Part shown: piece by piece, positions 4,589 through 51,504 of the stretch
How positions within the stretch are numbered: the first letter of the stretch is position 1
Layout of the letters: every line of letters begins with the position of its first letter
NCBI GenBank assembly: GCA_023378865.1
Contig: JAMCSP010000018.1
Location: forward strand, 1 to 55,448
DNA: 55,448 nucleotides
From: Candidatus Parvarchaeota archaeon
GTDB lineage: Archaea; Nanobdellota; Nanobdellia; Parvarchaeales; Parvarchaeaceae
Direction of reading: 5' to 3'
Translations under genes and position numbers: made by a program
Notes under the pieces: generated by a model
What the model was told of the DNA's origin: nothing
The model's database searches: none
Seen by the model: the letters and a program-made list of their open reading frames with translations, nothing else

Positions 4589-5788
4589 ATGCAATATTTT
4601 AGTAGGAAAAGGGCCTTGTTATTTACATCATTGACGCATTTTGCTAATGATGGTAATTTTCTGCTTTTTTCAATACTCATAGTCTTTTTTGCTAAATTAC
4701 CAGGAGCAAGTATTGCATTTCTCGGTGCAAATGCAATAATATATAATATTCTTTATGGAGTAATAAGCTTGCCTGTAGGGAAGTTTGCAGACAGATTAAA
4801 TAATGATAGGTTTTTATTAGCATCGGGAATAGCATTAGAAGGTCTAGCAGCATTCTTTTTTGGGTTTGGATTTATTTATAAAATTTATTATATGGTCTTT
4901 ATTATATTAGGTTCTATAGCTTTGGGTTCTGGTCAGGCTTTTTACCATCCAATAGGCGCTTCTGTGCTTTCTTTTGTTTATGAAAGCAGAGATTTAGGCA
5001 AAATTCTTGGAATAAACGGGGCATTTGGCAGTCTAGGGAGGGCGCTAATGCCATCTGTAATAACTTTTCTACTTCTATTCTTTGGCGGTTTTAAGGGAAT
5101 GGAAATTATTGCAGTTTATGTTTGGATTTTATCAATGATAATATATTTTGGGATGTCGGGTTTTACAAGGCCTTTCAAAAAGCACAAGAAAATTAGAAAG
5201 AAGGAAGGTTTACCTAGCAGCATAAAGAAAAACCTTTACCTTGCATTGATCCCAATTTTTCTAAAAGGGGCTTTTATAATGGGCACAGTAACCTTTATCG
5301 CAGAATATATAGATAAAATTACAGGATCGGCTGCGTTTACCGGAATTATACTTACTATAAGTTTTATTCCAGCCATTTTAGGCCAGCCTCTTTTTGGCTA
5401 TATTACTACTATAAAAGGCGGCAGATTCACTATTGCATTAACTTCCTTCCTTTCCTTTTTGGCGTTTCTACTATTTCTGGCTACTACAAATATTATAATT
5501 CTAACGTTTGCTTATGCTGTTTTGGCTTTTCTAATATTTACTGGGTTTTCAGTGCTTTTGGACTACACATATCAGTTAGTGCCAAAAGAATATTATTCGA
5601 CTGCTTATAGTTTAGTGTGGGGAATCGGGAATATTTTGGGAGGAGCGTTTGGGATAGCTTTAATGACTTATTTCCTGACTTTTACAAGTGTTATAACCGG
5701 TATGTATTATATGGCAATATTATTCTTTATATCATTAATGTTCCTTCCTTTGCTTCCAAAATCTAGAAAAGATGAGTTGGTTACTTAA
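4589..5788 (+). CDS. MFS-type transporter (substrate unknown)
   Basis: 399 aa. About 12 hydrophobic helices split by a basic central loop (FKKHKKIRKKEG). GKFADRLNNDR loop after TM2 resembles the MFS signature. Confidence 0.65.
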   Translation: MQYFSRKRALLFTSLTHFANDGNFLLFSILIVFFAKLPGASIAFLGANAIIYNILYGVISLPVGKFADRLNNDRFLLASGIALEGLAAFFFGFGFIYKIYYMVFIILGSIALGSGQAFYHPIGASVLSFVYESRDLGKILGINGAFGSLGRALMPSVITFLLLFFGGFKGMEIIAVYVWILSMIIYFGMSGFTRPFKKHKKIRKKEGLPSSIKKNLYLALIPIFLKGAFIMGTVTFIAEYIDKITGSAAFTGIILTISFIPAILGQPLFGYITTIKGGRFTIALTSFLSFLAFLLFLATTNIIILTFAYAVLAFLIFTGFSVLLDYTYQLVPKEYYSTAYSLVWGIGNILGGAFGIALMTYFLTFTSVITGMYYMAILFFISLMFLPLLPKSRKDELVT

Positions 5789-11774: not shown

Positions 11775-13892
11775 TCAGATGTGGGTTGCGCTTATTACTA
11801 ACCCCCCTACTGACGCGAATACTAACGTTACTATAAATGCTATCAATATATATAAGACCATTGAAATAAGAAGCATGGATGCCATCGTGTCTCTCATCAG
11901 TATCCTGTCACCAGGTTGTGAAATAGTGGATACTGCATATCCTATTATAAGGCTTAAGCTTACAAGGTATACCCCTATTATTACCTGAAAAGTATACAAT
12001 GGTATTGCCCCGCCGCTTAAATTAAATAAACTGAATGCAAACGGAACCACTGATGAAACACTGCTGCTAGAGGATGTACTTGCTGCACTTTGTATCGAAC
12101 TTATACTGCTGGAAAGAGAAGTAAGCACAGTACCTATTAAAGTAGTTAGTCCCACTACTATACCGGCCATTGCAGGGCTTATCAATCCAACTTCTACGCG
12201 CATTCCTGAAGTGACTTCTTCTAAAAGTGAACGTACCTGCTCTTCTATCCTACGCAAGTTTGCAAGGTGCTTTGAAACGTAAGCTGTGGCTACTGAAGCG
12301 TTTCTTACGCTTTTTGCAGCGGAGGAAAGAAAAATTTTCGTAGATGCAAGAATCATAGGTGATGGGAAAAAACGGGTAGAACCGTTCGTTGCATTAAAAA
12401 ATGCGTCTTTTAAAGACATGCCAAGTTTTCTAATGTTGTTTATTGTTACATCAAAGAATTCTGAAACGGGTGTGCCTTTCATGTTTTCTTCTACTTTTAC
12501 AAGAGTAGCTTCTGGTGGATAGCCCTGTGCAAGGAAAGAGCTCATTTGCGACATTGCAGCACCGAAAGATGTTTCTATTGAGTTTAATTCTTCTTCTGTT
12601 TCTTTAAGCTGTATAACTGAAAGTTTAAGGTAAACCACTATTGAGAAGCCTATAGCCGCAGTTATAAACATCGAAACGTATATCTGCGTTGGCCCAAATT
12701 TTAAAAGCAGAGGATAAAGAAAATAAACTGGCAGCATGAAAAGGATGAATATTAATATAGCGGGCAGAAGTGCGCTTATGCTTATATTTTTCTTTCCCAG
12801 TTTTAAAAAGAAATTCCCAACTTTTGGTATGTTTGGTATATTGTTTATATCCGGTGCTCCGAATCCGCTTGGTCTCGTGAGCAATTTGTTTCTTATCAAA
12901 AAATAAACCATTAAGGGTAAACCTACATCGTACATCAGTGCAAGCAGCAACCCAAAATCAGGAACTGCTACAAATGCCATTAACATTGGGGCTAAAACCA
13001 ATCCTAAAACTGGAAGGACCATACCTATCATATATATTGTGTTTAGCGGCTCTTTCAATGATGAAGCATATTTTGTCATTGCCTCAAAAGTACCTCCTAA
13101 TATCCTATCAGAAGCTTCATCCAATAATCCCAATCTTGCTTCTTCTGTTTCCTGCGAAGTCGAACTTTCTATAAGGAAAAGCGCATCCGTAAACGCCGGG
13201 CTTGATTTCGCCCATCTTTTTGAATACTCATCCAATGCTTCTTTTATATTATTGTATTTTCTTGCTGCTGTGTCCCATATCAATTTTTTTAAATCAAGTG
13301 CTAGATAACTTGTCAGGTTATCGGAAGCAAATTGTACAGCTCCTTCCAAATTTGGAGTTTGTCGCATAAATATGACCATGTAAAGTATCATGGTAACAAG
13401 GTCACTTGAAGACTTACTTAATCTAACGGTCATTTGTTGTTGAGGAAATATCTGTACGCCTATAAATGAAATAACGCCCAAGAACATAAGTACTAGGCCA
13501 GCAATTATCTGGCCCAAAACAAGAAGTATCACTCCCAAAAACATCAAAGCTACAAGCATAAATATGCCAAAGCCGTATAACTGTTTCGCATCAAAATCAT
13601 AGCCAAGAAGATAAAGCAGTGTGTTTATTTTCTTTTCCTGTTCTTTGTTTATGTTAAATTTTATTATCTTACCTATAGTATTTGCTCCAAAGTTTATTAT
13701 TTTTGAAAAGTTTGTTGGGTTTTTCTCTTTGAATATCTTATATTCAAGTGACCTTAATTCCTCTCTAACATTTTCGTCTTTTTTATATAAATCGCTTGAA
13801 ACCAAGCTTTCTTTTGTGTAGTATGTATCTATAAAGTTCTTGTCTATCTTTACAGAAGGTACGATCTCCTTTACTTTTTGCTTCTTAGCCAT
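11775..13892 (-). CDS. polytopic membrane protein, PilC/TadC/FlaJ-like pilus or secretion platform
   Basis: 705 aa. Twofold repeat of [soluble helical segment + 3-4 TM helices], as in T2SS-F/FlaJ platforms. Ser-run loop ASTSSSSSVSSV. Start overlaps the ATPase gene by 22 nt. The call rests on architecture and context, not on a recognised motif. Confidence 0.55.
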   Translation of the reverse strand: MAKKQKVKEIVPSVKIDKNFIDTYYTKESLVSSDLYKKDENVREELRSLEYKIFKEKNPTNFSKIINFGANTIGKIIKFNINKEQEKKINTLLYLLGYDFDAKQLYGFGIFMLVALMFLGVILLVLGQIIAGLVLMFLGVISFIGVQIFPQQQMTVRLSKSSSDLVTMILYMVIFMRQTPNLEGAVQFASDNLTSYLALDLKKLIWDTAARKYNNIKEALDEYSKRWAKSSPAFTDALFLIESSTSQETEEARLGLLDEASDRILGGTFEAMTKYASSLKEPLNTIYMIGMVLPVLGLVLAPMLMAFVAVPDFGLLLALMYDVGLPLMVYFLIRNKLLTRPSGFGAPDINNIPNIPKVGNFFLKLGKKNISISALLPAILIFILFMLPVYFLYPLLLKFGPTQIYVSMFITAAIGFSIVVYLKLSVIQLKETEEELNSIETSFGAAMSQMSSFLAQGYPPEATLVKVEENMKGTPVSEFFDVTINNIRKLGMSLKDAFFNATNGSTRFFPSPMILASTKIFLSSAAKSVRNASVATAYVSKHLANLRRIEEQVRSLLEEVTSGMRVEVGLISPAMAGIVVGLTTLIGTVLTSLSSSISSIQSAASTSSSSSVSSVVPFAFSLFNLSGGAIPLYTFQVIIGVYLVSLSLIIGYAVSTISQPGDRILMRDTMASMLLISMVLYILIAFIVTLVFASVGGLVISATHI

Positions 13893-16138
13893 AAATCAAA
13901 TAAATTTACAATGTTTTTCCTTTCTGCAGTTCCATACTCTTCTCTTAGTCTACTTATTATATCATAGTATTGATCTATTGCTGCAGAAGTGAATTCAGCT
14001 TCCAATAATGCTGGGTTATTAACTTTGTTTGCGTAATTAGATAATGCATCTAATATCTCTCCTCTTGCTCTTATATTTTCAAGCACAGCGTCCCAGTTGC
14101 CAGCCCAATCCTCCACTTTCGATGCTATTTCTTTTATAACATAACTGTTACCTTCCAATAAATCATTTGATGGGTCAAGACTATCTTTGTGTATATCATA
14201 TTTCACCAAATCTACAAATCCATTTTCATACTGCGGGTCTTCGGTCCAGTCCTTTCTTACTTCGGTTATATTAAGTACTCTTCTTCTTTCGCTTAATCTG
14301 TCTTCAGTTCTTATTTTATTTACAGAGACTATTAAATCCGTTGCTTTGAAGCTGGTTCTTGGAACATTTAGATCATTTACAACCCTATCAAAGACTCCAT
14401 AAGGGTTTTCACCATGTATTGTACCCATAACCGTGTTTGAAAGTGCGCCTACACGCATTGCTTCATACAAGGCTTTTGCTTCTGTGCTTCTTACTTCCCC
14501 AACAATTAATGAGCTGTCCCCAAGTCTTAATGTAGTCCTTATGCCTTCATCTGCACTCATTTCCGCTCTCTCTCCAGTTATTGCGCTTTGCACTTTTAAA
14601 GACAGCATATCGTATCCTAAATTGACAAACGAATCCGTAGGGATTTCTAAAGTATCTTCAACTGTTATTATTCTATATCTTTTCATTAAAAGCAGCATCA
14701 ATGCAGTCAACATAGATGTCTTCCCTGCTCCACGTGTGCCGCTTATAAGTATTGTTCTTGCGCCTTCCACGCAAAACCAAAGTAATCCGGCTGCAAAAGG
14801 AGATATCATTTTATTGCTTATAAACAGCGGTATCGTCCATGGCTTTTCCCTATGCCTTCTAAATGCTATACTTATCCCGTCCGGAGAAAGAGGACGCTGG
14901 GCTATTGCAACCCTTGATCTGAACAGATCCGTTATAAGTTCAGTATCCAGTACAGGGTGGCCCTCATCAAGAGCCCTTCCTGACATTAATCTAAACCTGG
15001 AAGACCACGCATCAACTTCCTTTGCATTTGGTATAATGTTCGAAGCACATTCTCCATATTTTGAATGCTTGACAAAGATTGGAGATTTGCTTATTGGCGA
15101 GTTTATATATACATCTTCTACCATGTCATCTGACAGAACAATCTCTGTCATTCCGAAGCCGACAGTTAACCTAACAAGTATTCTTGCAAGCTTGTCTATA
15201 TCTTTGAAACTTAGACTGTATCCATTTTTGGTGCTTATGTCTGCAATCATGTCCTTGCTTATTTTGAAAAATACTTCTCTCATCCTTAAAGGATCAGTAA
15301 ACTCATTTTCCTGCGGTCTGTAATCTATTAAACTATTCCTTACCTGATCCAGTATGTCATACTCTTCTACATTAAGCAGTAATTCTGGAGGCGATAAATG
15401 GTATAGGTATTGTGACATTCCGGGTATACGGTATATAGTTACTTCTGTCTGGTCTTCATCTCCTAATTTATAATTCTCCAGTTCTACTGCCGAGAGAGGG
15501 GGCTCTGACATTATCCTTGTGTATGTAAAATTTGGTCGTATTAGCGGTTTAAAGATTGCACGGTATGGTTGCCTATCTCCTATTTTATAACCTAGTATAA
15601 GGTTTAGGTTTTTGTTAACTATTTTTATTTCGGCTATTTGCGTTATAAGATTTGAAAATCTTTCAAGAAAAGTGGAAAACAATGCCGAGTCACTATTCTC
15701 CTGCTTTACTTTAAACTCTCTTAAAAATCTTAATCCAAGTACATATGCTCCGATAGGGTCTCTTTTTAGACGGTTAAACAATATGTAATTAAATTTTGAT
15801 ACTTCTTCAGGGAAATTCTTTTGTATGTCGTTGTCAAAAGGCTTGGAAAGATCGGACTCAAGTACGGCCTTATATTTATTTGCAAGGTCATTTAAAAGAT
15901 TTGTTTGTTCTTTTGTGTATATGTAGTTTCTGTCGCTTACTATTGTAAGTAATGTTATATCTCCAGATTCGATTATTGCGTTTATTATTTTTTCGAATAT
16001 ATCTTCATTGTCTTCTGGATTTGGGTAAAGTACATCTAAAGGTACTTTGTATGTAAGCGTTATTTCTCCCTCTTCCCTGGAAATAGAATAATCTTTGTTT
16101 TTTAATTCCATTATTACTATTATATTGTCTGCAAGCAT
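13871..16138 (-). CDS. type II/IV secretion (FlaI/PilB/VirB11-family) ATPase with long N- and C-terminal extensions
   Basis: 755 aa. Walker A GTRGAGKTS, Asp box ITVEDTLEI, Walker B LIVGEVRSTEA, His box GTIHG. About 400 aa precede the P-loop and about 130 aa follow the core. Confidence 0.85.
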   Translation of the reverse strand: MLADNIIVIMELKNKDYSISREEGEITLTYKVPLDVLYPNPEDNEDIFEKIINAIIESGDITLLTIVSDRNYIYTKEQTNLLNDLANKYKAVLESDLSKPFDNDIQKNFPEEVSKFNYILFNRLKRDPIGAYVLGLRFLREFKVKQENSDSALFSTFLERFSNLITQIAEIKIVNKNLNLILGYKIGDRQPYRAIFKPLIRPNFTYTRIMSEPPLSAVELENYKLGDEDQTEVTIYRIPGMSQYLYHLSPPELLLNVEEYDILDQVRNSLIDYRPQENEFTDPLRMREVFFKISKDMIADISTKNGYSLSFKDIDKLARILVRLTVGFGMTEIVLSDDMVEDVYINSPISKSPIFVKHSKYGECASNIIPNAKEVDAWSSRFRLMSGRALDEGHPVLDTELITDLFRSRVAIAQRPLSPDGISIAFRRHREKPWTIPLFISNKMISPFAAGLLWFCVEGARTILISGTRGAGKTSMLTALMLLLMKRYRIITVEDTLEIPTDSFVNLGYDMLSLKVQSAITGERAEMSADEGIRTTLRLGDSSLIVGEVRSTEAKALYEAMRVGALSNTVMGTIHGENPYGVFDRVVNDLNVPRTSFKATDLIVSVNKIRTEDRLSERRRVLNITEVRKDWTEDPQYENGFVDLVKYDIHKDSLDPSNDLLEGNSYVIKEIASKVEDWAGNWDAVLENIRARGEILDALSNYANKVNNPALLEAEFTSAAIDQYYDIISRLREEYGTAERKNIVNLFDLWLRSKK

Positions 16139-18559
16139 TTATTTATGTTTTTTACCGTATTTTCTGTGTCTTATACGTTCCACTAAAAGCAAAATCACTA
16201 AAATCACCATTATGGTGCCGATTATTATATATAATTCATATAAACCAGCTGTAATCGATAAAGTACCGGAAAGAGCATTTAAGTTATTAAAAAAGAATTT
16301 CGAATTATAAGCCGTTATGGTTGCATTGTACGTTTTCTGCGGTAGATTTATAAATGTAACTGACCCCAATACGTTTGTATAATTTTTGAAGGATGCATTA
16401 TCAATGTTTATAGTTACACCTGCTCCGACAACAGGGATTCCTAGTATTGTTACCACCCTTATATTTATGTTTGATACCGGGATAGTGACATTTAAATCAT
16501 TTTCTGAATTCGTCTTTACTGTCTGGTTTATGTTTAAGTTAGTATTGTCATAACTCACATTTCTGATTGTAATCACACTGTTTCTGGGCGCCCAAATATA
16601 ATAATTTTGGTATATCTCAGTTATATTTTCAAAGGACATATAGAAGTAAGAAGGCCTAATTACTGCGCCCTGTTTTGATAAAAAGTTTATCGTGTAATTA
16701 TACTCTTTTATGAAATTTACTGTTATAGTGCTTTGGAATTTACTTGTTAAATTTAATGTAATATATCTATTTCCAGTTATTATCTGCGGACTGGCATAGA
16801 CATAAAATCTAGAATTATTGCTGGAATATACATAACCTCCATTACTTACCCTAGAATAAACTTTCTGAATAGTTTTTGATAGCGGAACAGTTCTGTAATA
16901 AGAAACGTTTGCGGATAATCCAGCCGTTCCGTTCAAAAATTCGAAAGTTACTTTTGGGTCTTTACTCCATGAAAAGCTTACGTTGAAAGGAGACAGTACC
17001 TGTATTGTATAATCGGGAATTTGCAGTAATGTCCCATTGTCTATGCTGAACCCAAGCAAAACTTCCTGGTACTGTGAGTAATTTTCCAGTTTTTGGGCGG
17101 ATATAGTTAAAGTACTTCCATTCCGTATGTATGCACTTTTACTGTTTATTCCGTTGTAGTCATACTCATTTACAAGAAAATAAACCGAAAAATTCATGTT
17201 TATTGTGCCGGATTGGTTTATGAAGAAAGATGCTGTATTATTGCGTGTATTCACAATTCCAGACATCGAAGTAAACAGGATTCTTTTATCTGAGCTAATA
17301 TTCTGTGAATACGCAGCAATATTTATTTTTTCACCGAATGCGAATTTTAAAGTCGTCGATTTAGAATAATTTTTGCCGTTTACGCTGAAAACACCGCTTA
17401 CAGGATCGTTAAAGTATACCTCGTAAGTGGTATTTGAAAGTGCTTCTACAAGTGGATATACTTTTGGAGAACCCAATCCCGTTACTTCATTGTATTCTCC
17501 ATCTGCACAATATAAGTCATTACAGCCGCTTGTTATATTGTTAAAGATAAGGCTGCCTACGCTGTTAAATAGGTTGTAAAGATGGCTGTTTAAGTATCCC
17601 TCTTCACCGTGTAAGTTTTGGTTTATTAACGAATCAATCGCGGCCCAGGACGGTGCCGCCAAGCTTGTTCCATAAAGCGCGGTCCAGTCTGAGTTAGCGT
17701 ATACACAAACAGGCGTTCCGGCGTCAAATGCAACATCTGGCACCATCCGATAAGAGCTTATATCTGGTTGAAATGCAGGTCTTGTAAAAAACTGGCTTTG
17801 TCCACCCCCGCTTCCGTTCCAGCCTACTTCTGATTTGTAATCTCCATTTGAATATACAGACAGAGTAGTACCACCGACTGCTATAACATTCGGGCTCGAG
17901 GCTGGAAAGTTAACATTTGGGGTATTATATGAATTATAAGCTCCAGTGTCACCACTCGCTACAAATATATTTATGCCTTTTGATTGCGCAGATTGGAAAA
18001 TCGAATTTAAATAGTTTATAGACTGTTGAGAATAATCAAGTTCTGATGACCCCCAGCTGAGTGAGATAGTATCTGCAGGTACATTATTTATTGTGTAATT
18101 TACAGTCTGGAAAAGCCATGAGTCGTTTGGAGCAATAATTAGGTATATTCTTGCATTCGGTGCCAATGAATGTGTCATTTCTACGTCTAAAGCGGTTTCA
18201 TACGTCCAGTTAATTGGATAAGAATTGGGACTTCCAAATGGTTCTTCTATTACAAGGTTAGAGCCGTTTGTAAGTGCGTTTAAACCGTAATATGAATCAA
18301 ATGCATTTACATCCTGCTGTAAATTTGGATCACCATGTGCTACTACAATGGCAATGGACTGCCCATTTCCATTTATGCTTAAATTATACAAAGGTAAAAA
18401 GTTATAAGCAGTTTGCAGATCCTGAGGGGTTAGATAGTTGCAAACCTGGTTTTGCAGTGGGGCCTCCTGGAAATTCAAATTTATTCCTTTAGATGCATGA
18501 GTTATTGATACTGACAATAATAGCATTATTAAAATAAGTAATGGTATCCGTTTTTGCAT
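16139..18559 (-). CDS. secreted, membrane-anchored sedolisin (peptidase S53)-like protease with large sequon-rich C-terminal region
   Basis: 806 aa. Sec signal peptide (..SITHA/SKG). S53 motifs ETALDVE, VASGDTGAY, GTSLAAPSWAA. About 400 aa Asn/Ser/Tyr-rich with many N-x-S/T sequons. CarboxypepD_reg-like segment VVTILGIPVVGAGVTINID..GSVTFINLPQKTYNATITA. C-terminal TM helix plus basic tail RHRKYGKKHK. Confidence 0.75.
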   Translation of the reverse strand: MQKRIPLLILIMLLLSVSITHASKGINLNFQEAPLQNQVCNYLTPQDLQTAYNFLPLYNLSINGNGQSIAIVVAHGDPNLQQDVNAFDSYYGLNALTNGSNLVIEEPFGSPNSYPINWTYETALDVEMTHSLAPNARIYLIIAPNDSWLFQTVNYTINNVPADTISLSWGSSELDYSQQSINYLNSIFQSAQSKGINIFVASGDTGAYNSYNTPNVNFPASSPNVIAVGGTTLSVYSNGDYKSEVGWNGSGGGQSQFFTRPAFQPDISSYRMVPDVAFDAGTPVCVYANSDWTALYGTSLAAPSWAAIDSLINQNLHGEEGYLNSHLYNLFNSVGSLIFNNITSGCNDLYCADGEYNEVTGLGSPKVYPLVEALSNTTYEVYFNDPVSGVFSVNGKNYSKSTTLKFAFGEKINIAAYSQNISSDKRILFTSMSGIVNTRNNTASFFINQSGTINMNFSVYFLVNEYDYNGINSKSAYIRNGSTLTISAQKLENYSQYQEVLLGFSIDNGTLLQIPDYTIQVLSPFNVSFSWSKDPKVTFEFLNGTAGLSANVSYYRTVPLSKTIQKVYSRVSNGGYVYSSNNSRFYVYASPQIITGNRYITLNLTSKFQSTITVNFIKEYNYTINFLSKQGAVIRPSYFYMSFENITEIYQNYYIWAPRNSVITIRNVSYDNTNLNINQTVKTNSENDLNVTIPVSNINIRVVTILGIPVVGAGVTINIDNASFKNYTNVLGSVTFINLPQKTYNATITAYNSKFFFNNLNALSGTLSITAGLYELYIIIGTIMVILVILLLVERIRHRKYGKKHK

Positions 18560-18645
18560 AGGCTAGTAAAACAGCCACTAAATTTAAAATTATTGTAATT
18601 TCAAATATAGAAAAAGTTAAATACTAAGCTATTTATTGAAACTAA

Positions 18646-50913: not shown

Positions 50914-51504
50914 ATGGATAACCAAAATAAAAGAAGAGCTAGCACTTATATTGTTTTAGCTGTTATATTTTTATTCATACTTCTTTTAGTTTACTATGCA
51001 TTAACTGCAGGCAACATAAAACAATTGTCCGTAGGAGTTACAAGCTGGTATTTGGCAAGCGCTTCAAAATCATTTTATCCAATAAACATAGAAAGCATAA
51101 CAAGCGTTTTCAACAGTTCAAACAATCAGCTTTACCTTTTAGTAAAGCTAAAAAACAGCGGCAGTTCGGCTATCGAATACCTTTCAGGATGCATATCCCC
51201 TTTTTCGGGAGTTGTTTATCCTAGCAGTATAGCAAACTTAACTTATGAGAAGGGAGTAGCCTCATGTAATGCTATAGTTTTAGATCAGCTTTTGCCAAAT
51301 CAAACCGCTACGCTTCAATGGCCTTTATCCCCGCAGATGATAGAGGTATTAAAGGCTGGAAACTTTGATGTAAACCTTACTTTTCCATTTAGTTCCTATA
51401 GCAATATAACAAAAACCTGCCCTAGGCTGAATACTACCTGTCCCGCTCTAAATGACTTTACAGGAAACGCAACAATCCATGTATCTATTTCTGCAGTTAA
51501 TTAA
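50914..51504 (+). CDS. N-terminally anchored or secreted small sequon-rich protein, unknown function
   Basis: 196 aa. MDNQNKRRASTYIVLAVIFLFILLLVYYAL anchor, four Cys, several N-x-S/T sequons. Confidence 0.5.
   Translation: MDNQNKRRASTYIVLAVIFLFILLLVYYALTAGNIKQLSVGVTSWYLASASKSFYPINIESITSVFNSSNNQLYLLVKLKNSGSSAIEYLSGCISPFSGVVYPSSIANLTYEKGVASCNAIVLDQLLPNQTATLQWPLSPQMIEVLKAGNFDVNLTFPFSSYSNITKTCPRLNTTCPALNDFTGNATIHVSISAVN

Follow-up and report, generated by a model that had tools for sequence, protein, structure and literature searches.

Among the ATPases of archaeal type IV pili (T4P), some carry extra N-terminal domains and have coiled-coil partners, and these occur in nanoarchaea in which no pilins could be identified (Makarova, Koonin & Albers 2016; PMC4858521). 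The T4P islands of DPANN archaea are, moreover, rich in unannotated genes (Makarova et al. 2019). Two conserved T4P-like loci have been described in cluster-2 DPANN (Hamm et al. 2024, Nat Commun; PMC11291902), one of them comprising a CpaF-like ATPase, TadC and coiled-coil proteins; several proteins of these loci were found in proteomics, and a role in host interaction was proposed for them. A survey of the Nanobdellati (PLoS Genet 2026; PMC13705601) found the DPANN ATPase and platform genes to be adjacent and the pilin genes scattered. The present analysis concerns a 55,448-nucleotide (nt) stretch of Candidatus Parvarchaeota archaeon, further called the window (GenBank assembly GCA_023378865.1, contig JAMCSP010000018.1), which is contig C18 of an 807-kb genome in 35 contigs. 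Close homologs bear names that assign the organism to Candidatus Parvarchaeum, DPANN archaea of the ARMAN-4/5 type. It contains three co-oriented open reading frames (ORFs) on the minus strand, 16139-18559 (806 amino acids, aa), 13871-16138 (755 aa in the longest version), and 11775-13892 (705 aa), coding for a surface protease, a long secretion-type ATPase, and a putative membrane platform, respectively. A preliminary description of the window had reported this arrangement, which proved real, and regarded it as a strict coupling of a protease to a pilus-type motor.

The ATPase–platform pair of the window resembles the archaeal type IV filament (T4F) ATPase/TadC modules of clade 4 (PMC4858521; PMC13705601) in having a VirB11/FlaI-type ATPase beside a TadC-like platform; these modules also include ATPases with extra N-domains, and their pilins are scattered or, in nanoarchaea, unidentified. 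From the gene content we infer that the pair is the module called locus 2 by Hamm et al. (PMC11291902), with which it shares the combination, found DPANN-wide, of an ATPase and a TadC-type platform, accompanied by two coiled-coil proteins (seen in loci L009-L011 and in 18 of 21 genomes). Unlike in that locus, the coiled-coil pair and the paralogous transmembrane (TM) proteins of Parvarchaeum are encoded on other contigs, and a protease gene lies upstream of the ATPase gene instead. The arCOG01314 secretion system of Makarova was considered as a link to the window locus and rejected, being a different system.

The locus is best understood as two independent functional units, the protease gene and the ATPase–platform pair, which became neighbours through rearrangement in the Parvarchaeum lineage; the probability of this reading may be put at roughly 0.8. 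The protease and the ATPase were searched for in all 40 genomes of the order, and 20 regions were fetched, onto which the window genes were mapped. The two genes are adjacent in about 30 of the 31 genomes of the genus Parvarchaeum (g1), in one of four genomes of the sister genus g2 (Acidifodinimicrobium-like), and in neither of the two genomes of the genus g3. In every locus examined, the ATPase gene directly adjoins the platform gene and overlaps it by ca. 20 nt, and the protease gene keeps its place beside the divergent L44e–S27e–nitroreductase–Sec61beta–Hjc block in every genome mapped. In the four genomes in which the linkage was lost (G001, G003, G005, and G008), the break lies exactly between the protease and ATPase genes and the pair is found elsewhere; with G038 and G039, the protease and the pair are separate in six genomes. 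After the break the upstream neighbours of the pair are the L1–P0–P1 ribosomal genes in g2, and SRP54 with a tRNA gene in g3. In locus L007, from a more distant genome of Parvarchaeales, a tRNA-like sequence (5666-5745) immediately precedes the ATPase gene and separates it from SRP54 and a 52-aa zinc-ribbon ORF.

The distance from the protease stop codon to the ATPase start codon also varies, the spacers being 8 (in G002), 27, 28, 64, 81, 106, 147, ca. 155, 395, 622, and 823 nt long. In two genomes the gap holds a fragment resembling TnpB/OrfB of the IS605 type (MLTA..FRLYPN..; G012, L018 7516-8139, and G013, L019 7643-8039), and thus an insertion event took place at exactly this junction. In locus L006 a run of seven T residues follows the protease stop codon, and in relatives TATA-like boxes were found by inspection ca. 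30 nt upstream of the ATPase start. The strict coupling postulated earlier is thereby not upheld, since adjacency is restricted to one genus and one genome of its sister genus, with spacers of 8-823 nt; the comparison of gene order among relatives, proposed in the same description, showed conservation throughout for the ATPase–platform pair, but not, with the exception of that one genome, for the protease–ATPase neighbourhood outside Parvarchaeum. Within the genus, the identity of the protease falls to 41%, while that of the ATPase is 70% or more, which is the usual pattern of a fast-evolving surface protein beside a constrained core gene.

Across the phylum, the pair is a core module that occurs once in nearly every genome, mostly with no such protease beside it. 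Of 301 high-quality genomes, 295 encode the N-terminal domain of the ATPase, a single copy in each (in ORFs of ca. 750-790 aa or of intein size). Among 1.84 billion representative proteins this domain was met nowhere but at the start of ATPases of this kind, its distant members coming from Anstonellales. Full-length homologs of ca. 750-770 aa with ca. 50% identity are encoded in Nanoarchaeia, Woesearchaeota, and Tiddalikarchaeum. Some orthologs contain inteins (PF14528 and PF14890, as in P0145 and P0155; ORFs of 1265-1966 aa in G067, G184, G253, G281, and others), which fits a highly conserved, probably important gene. Ca. 50 of the 301 genomes show no more than one T2SSE match, and its score is weak, as is usual in the long-ATPase family.

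The partners of the pair are also recognizable. In Nanoarchaeia, Tiddalikarchaeum, and another DPANN locus the pair has as its neighbours two divergently oriented coiled-coil genes, genes for three to four paralogous membrane proteins of ca. 200 aa, and, downstream, genes whose products have class III signal N-termini; in other DPANN lineages the coiled-coil pair and the tandem multi-TM paralogs of ca. 190-220 aa precede the long ATPase gene (L009 3087-6905, L010 3833-6906, and L011 3918-6908). Of the 301 genomes, 296 encode the larger coiled-coil protein, which lies no more than 3 kb from the ATPase in 18 of the 21 non-Parvarchaeales genomes for which both places are listed. In the genome of the window these genes are scattered to other contigs, the coiled-coil pair at C13:45244-46251 and the three membrane paralogs at C27:22210-23999. 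One of the coiled-coil partners has a small UBA-like N-terminal domain followed by a Q/P-rich linker, and the small TM paralogs, which matched no Pfam family, share the motif F..LPFLLVFA.VYG.L.K(S/T)K.F. Directly downstream of the pair, L009 and L010 carry genes for pilin-like proteins with a class III signal.

The first unit is the protease. Its residues 43-375 match kumamolisin (1t1g; E 2.6e-32, ca. 30% identity over 330 residues), and E121 and D125 (in ETALD), D204 (in SGDTG), and S299 (in GTSLAAP) align with kumamolisin E78, D82, D164, and S278, so that the Ser-Glu-Asp triad and the oxyanion Asp of the sedolisin family (MEROPS S53) are all in place. Because the catalytic residues are aligned within this match, the protein is regarded as an S53 enzyme, in agreement with the preliminary description and with the name "S53 family peptidase" borne by its Candidatus Parvarchaeum orthologs; a Pfam match to Peptidase_S8 (1.2e-10) was also obtained. 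The N-terminus carries a signal peptide of the Sec type, ending between MQKRIPLLILIMLLLSVSITHA and S, and not of class III. No match to the pro-kumamolisin activation domain PF09286, present in many bacterial homologs, was found by the Pfam scan, and only ca. 20 residues separate the signal peptide from the catalytic domain. The catalytic domain is followed by a sequon-rich stalk of ca. 400 aa of beta type: of the 29 N-x-S/T sequons in the protein, 22 lie within residues 376-775, just before the C-terminal TM anchor (775-793), as had been described. The CarboxypepD_reg-like domain mentioned in the same place is a sub-threshold match here (E 0.075, 13.8 bits), but PF13620 is carried by one ortholog and by the Thermoplasmatota relatives. 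The window protease thus resembles kumamolisin and sedolisin in the triad and the oxyanion Asp, and differs from them in the lack of a prodomain and in the presence of the 400-aa stalk, predicted to be glycosylated, and of the membrane anchor.

An acidic pH optimum is to be expected of the predicted protease, given its family and the acid-mine habitat of Parvarchaeum. Its closest relatives outside Parvarchaeales are S53 proteins of Thermoplasmatota, ca. 1100 aa long and ca. 40-43% identical, with PEGA and PF13620 domains. Thermoplasmatota are the presumed host lineage of the ARMAN archaea, and since the nearest outside relatives belong to that lineage, an exchange of the protease gene between host and symbiont is possible.

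The start of the ATPase gene requires correction. In 10 relatives the protein starts at the residue equivalent to Met10 of the longest ORF (ME.K.KDY.ISREEGEI), and the frames upstream of it are closed by stop codons located just upstream; the true start is therefore Met10, at position 16111, which gives a protein of 746 aa and leaves a spacer of 27 nt after the protease stop. The abutment of the two genes reported in the preliminary description, as well as the length of 755 aa, applies only to the longest ORF. The overlap reported between the ATPase gene and the platform gene, on the other hand, was confirmed at 22 nt; overlaps of 20-22 nt recur in L006, L007, and L010, and suggest that translation of the two genes is coupled. 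At the other end of the cluster, the stop codon of the platform gene adjoins that of a convergent arginase gene.

The ATPase matches Pfam T2SSE with 61 bits (cut-off 24.9; residues 366-599) and NCBIfam FlaI with 7.5e-38, and resembles TadA and BasE as well. Its score with NF058587, the equivalog of the archaellum FlaI, is 130.6 bits, below the cut-off of 550, and no archaellum genes were found within the window. The motif search located all the secretion-ATPase boxes that had been claimed, GTRGAGKTS (467), EDTLE (494-498, with DTLE at 495), VGEVR (546), and TIHGEN (573), and their residues are invariant in 33 members of the family. The profile of these 33 members, compared with profiles of the Protein Data Bank, matches GspE of Archaeoglobus fulgidus (afGspE; residues 220-652, E 4e-34), CpaF, and FlaI (1.5e-22). 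The AlphaFold2 (AF2) model (pLDDT 81) gave in Foldseek the closest matches to afGspE (2oap; E 3.5e-20) and Sulfolobus FlaI/ArlI (4ii7; E 4.4e-19), with a TM-score of 0.7 on the target over residues ca. 220-700, so that the same two proteins are the best matches by profile and by fold. As this part aligns with full-length afGspE and FlaI, including their N-terminal domains, it has in the model the two-domain fold composed of an N-terminal and a C-terminal domain, and the family-specific part is consequently limited to residues ca. 10-220. The unassigned N-terminal sequence, previously estimated at ca. 400 aa, shrinks accordingly to ca. 210 residues, which matched no family in Pfam, and the C-terminal extension, noted as well, amounts to ca. 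30-50 aa at most. Judged by profiles and model, the protein is a secretion-superfamily ATPase (GspE/FlaI/CpaF/VirB11), which by analogy would form a hexamer and hydrolyse ATP. It differs from afGspE and FlaI in the ca. 210 additional N-terminal residues, in an Arg in the P-loop, and in the lack of archaellum genes nearby.

The 705-aa protein is less easily recognized. On its own it has no significant match in Pfam or NCBIfam, T2SSF being found with 12.1 bits and E 0.2 (cut-off 25.2), but the same model is matched by 17 of 21 members of its family, with the best E of 1.4e-10. Its profile gave no match among solved structures. There are ca. 8-9 hydrophobic helices, and the AF2 model (pLDDT 76) shows helical bundles at ca. 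182-278 and 460-527 between TM helices; its local Foldseek matches are the cytoplasmic domains of EpsF, OutF, and PilC (probability 0.90-0.96, TM-score 0.6-0.7 on the target), these local GspF/PilC-domain matches alone being informative, as the global ones are meaningless. The modelled topology, polytopic with cytoplasmic helical-bundle repeats, is that of platform proteins. The comparison by hhalign with the canonical half-platforms of the same genome yielded E 1.2e-4 and a probability of 55%. The protein is accepted here, on sequence and model comparisons, as a presumable TadC/FlaJ-type platform, far more divergent than typical TadC and without a significant Pfam match of its own. The PilC/FlaJ-like assignment made at the outset is hence supported by the family and by the local folds, but not by the protein's own T2SSF score.

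Features of the locus in the window (positions on contig C18)
Feature	Position	Strand	Basis
Candidate promoter of the protease gene, TATA-box-like TTTTAAAT, ca. 27 nt upstream of ATG	18582..18589	-	Read from sequence, putative
Protease gene, predicted surface S53 (sedolisin/kumamolisin-type) protein, 806 aa	16139..18559	-	ORF and translation; Pfam, kumamolisin match
S53 catalytic domain, aa 43-375 (E121/D125, D204, S299)	17435..18433	-	Alignment to kumamolisin 1t1g, motif positions
Predicted TM anchor at the C-terminus of the protease (aa 775-793) and Lys-rich tail behind it, RIRHRKYGKKHK	16181..16237	-	Hydropathy scan, score 2.87
CATAAATAAA at the protease/ATPase junction	16137-16146		
Spacer from protease stop to ATPase start, 27 nt (9 extra codons in the longest ORF)	16112..16138	-	Start comparison, 10 relatives
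ATPase gene, 746 aa, FlaI/GspE/CpaF type, DPANN-wide "long" family	13871..16111	-	Pfam/NCBIfam/PDB profiles, AF2
ATPase N-terminal extension peculiar to the family (aa 10-225)	15464..16111	-	AF2: small alpha/beta domain, then helical bundle
Walker A/P-loop GTRGAGKTS, aa 467-475	14714..14740	-	Motif search
Overlap of ATPase stop and platform start, 22 nt, ATGGCTAAGAAGCAAAAAGTAA	13871..13892	-	Sequence
Platform gene, predicted 705-aa polytopic membrane protein, divergent TadC/FlaJ/PilC type	11775..13892	-	Family Pfam, Foldseek, hhalign
Platform, predicted second cytoplasmic repeat of helices, T2SSF-like, aa 447-554	12231..12554	-	Weak Pfam T2SSF alignment; AF2 helical bundle

The motif scans support the statement that there is no pilin gene in or next to the cluster: no ORF with a class III signal was found there, and no ORF with the [KR][GA]Q motif anywhere in the window. 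The preliminary description had suggested a genome-wide search for class III signals and a prepilin peptidase, and this search located both. There are 18 ORFs with [KR][GA]Q followed by an N-terminal hydrophobic helix, all of them on other contigs and including large proteins of 809, 1124, and 1141 aa, and a PibD-type peptidase is encoded at C25:10696-11037 (Peptidase_A24, E 9.8e-15). Together with the scattered pilins of PMC13705601, these findings support one part of its first option, a motor serving pilins encoded elsewhere. The candidates are based on motif scans, as the Pfam models Class_IIIsignal and Pilin_N pick up next to nothing in this genome; no homologs of the pilin-like genes that follow the pair in L009 and L010 were detected among its proteins.

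The genome has a second, canonical T4F locus at C13:55400-58861, with two platform genes of half size and an ATPase of 507-513 aa that shares only ca. 29% identity with the long one. This locus, together with several class III N-termini of the Epd-like form KGQSALEYMMTYGW, resembles the Epd-type pili of Methanococcus (the archaeal T4F "system 1"), and it is a system separate from the window pair. Very large class III-type proteins are encoded in two clusters, C10:25938-42240 and C25:6656-12705 (809, 1141, 1124, 295, and ca. 194 aa), the former followed by a 3022-aa ORF and the latter flanking the PibD-type peptidase gene; these proteins are candidate giant pilin-like adhesins. Two ORFs of the window itself were considered as pilin genes and dismissed. 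The 196-aa ORF at 50914-51504 (+) is a weak case, with RRA|ST and no K/R-G/A-Q motif; in its product a short, charged N-terminal part leads into a single hydrophobic helix (MDNQNKRRASTYIVLAVIFLF...) and a body rich in sequons, and the ORF more likely codes for a simple surface protein anchored by its N-terminus. A 296-aa antisense ORF (14433-15323, +), pilin-like by one motif scan, sits inside the strongly conserved ATPase gene and is almost certainly not a gene.

On the reading of two independent units, the protease would be exported by Sec, probably N-glycosylated, and held by its C-terminus in the membrane at the cell surface, where it would most likely digest extracellular or host-surface protein at low pH, for an organism of limited biosynthetic ability. 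The protease does not require a pilus motor, because its signal peptide is an ordinary Sec one. The translationally coupled ATPase and platform would be the Parvarchaeum ortholog of the phylum-wide T4F module, in which the ATPase hexamer docks on the platform and the motor assembles class III proteins, encoded elsewhere and cleaved by PibD, into a surface filament, possibly with the participation of the coiled-coil proteins. The two units would have separate promoters.

Several observations weigh against this reading. In the window the protease stop codon is followed by neither a T-run nor a hairpin terminator, and with a spacer of only 27 nt the read-through of all three genes is possible. 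The adjacency of protease and ATPase has been kept genus-wide despite protease identities as low as 41%, and it is more stable than that of the platform and arginase genes, so some selective benefit of co-expression is possible. Scans for sigma-70 promoters and intrinsic terminators gave 23 sites versus 26 expected and are uninformative for an archaeon.

These observations agree with the view that the protease is co-transcribed with the T4F motor as parts of one co-regulated surface toolkit, in which host contact and envelope digestion would be expressed jointly. Both products act at the cell surface, and the short spacers in the window and in G002 (8 nt), with no terminator-like signal, and the conservation of the arrangement in nearly all genomes of the genus speak in its favour. 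However, the spacers of the same genus reach 395-823 nt and contain remnants of insertion sequences, relatives have an oligo-T run after the protease stop (L006) and TATA-like boxes upstream of the ATPase start, G008 and three of the four g2 genomes have lost the linkage and kept both units, and in other lineages it is a housekeeping gene that lies upstream of the pair; joint expression is therefore considered improbable. Still further from the evidence is the proposal of a dedicated device, resembling type II secretion, with the motor pair as the machinery that secretes or mounts the protease. Nothing but the gene order in one genus speaks for it. The protease bears a Sec signal of the classical kind, not one of class III, and is anchored by a C-terminal TM helix; it persists unlinked in g2 genomes, and the pair occurs in 295 of 301 genomes of the phylum mostly with no such protease adjoining. 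Archaea are not known to possess an outer membrane or a secretin for which a step like that of the type II secretion system (T2SS) would be required, which also weighs against the proposal. The export device suggested in the preliminary description is thus hardly credible, given the Sec and TM signals and the separation of protease and pair in six genomes.

A different question is what the pair itself does. It might be the core of a DPANN-specific apparatus for cell contact or uptake, built with the coiled-coil proteins and the small membrane paralogs, rather than of an ordinary adhesion pilus. Its near-universal occurrence in a single copy, the conserved N-domain unique to this ATPase, the inteins in some orthologs, the constant coiled-coil partner, usually encoded nearby, and the ca. 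50 genomes in which the long ATPase is the sole T2SSE ATPase are in line with such a role, as is the host-interaction function proposed by Hamm et al. 2024 (PMC11291902). Conservation by itself, however, does not define function, and the pilin-like class III genes placed directly 3' of the pair in L009 and L010 are what a normal filament system would have; the idea is regarded as tentative and rather unlikely. Its combination with the toolkit view, according to which a near-essential DPANN contact or uptake machine with scattered parts was joined in Parvarchaeum by an acid protease that digests the host envelope and shares its promoter, which would let contact and digestion be deployed together, seems quite improbable. 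The reading of two independent units, brought together by rearrangement, remains the preferred one.

The scattering of pilin genes and the locus composed of ATPase, TadC, and coiled-coil genes have already been published for DPANN, and the role of the near-universal long ATPase–platform module is a question that extends beyond this locus and that earlier publications have raised. Of use remain the corrected annotation, with the start of the ATPase at Met10 and the 705-aa "hypothetical protein" reassigned as a probable TadC-type platform, and the picture of the pair as a core module of almost the whole phylum. A true coupling of protease and motor would make the locus the first T2SS-like secretion device known from archaea or, alternatively, a first molecular handle on the attack of ARMAN-type nano-archaea on their Thermoplasmatales hosts. 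The evidence points the other way, to a protease that would be the neighbour of the motor pair by an accident of gene order and not a part of a new secretion machine.

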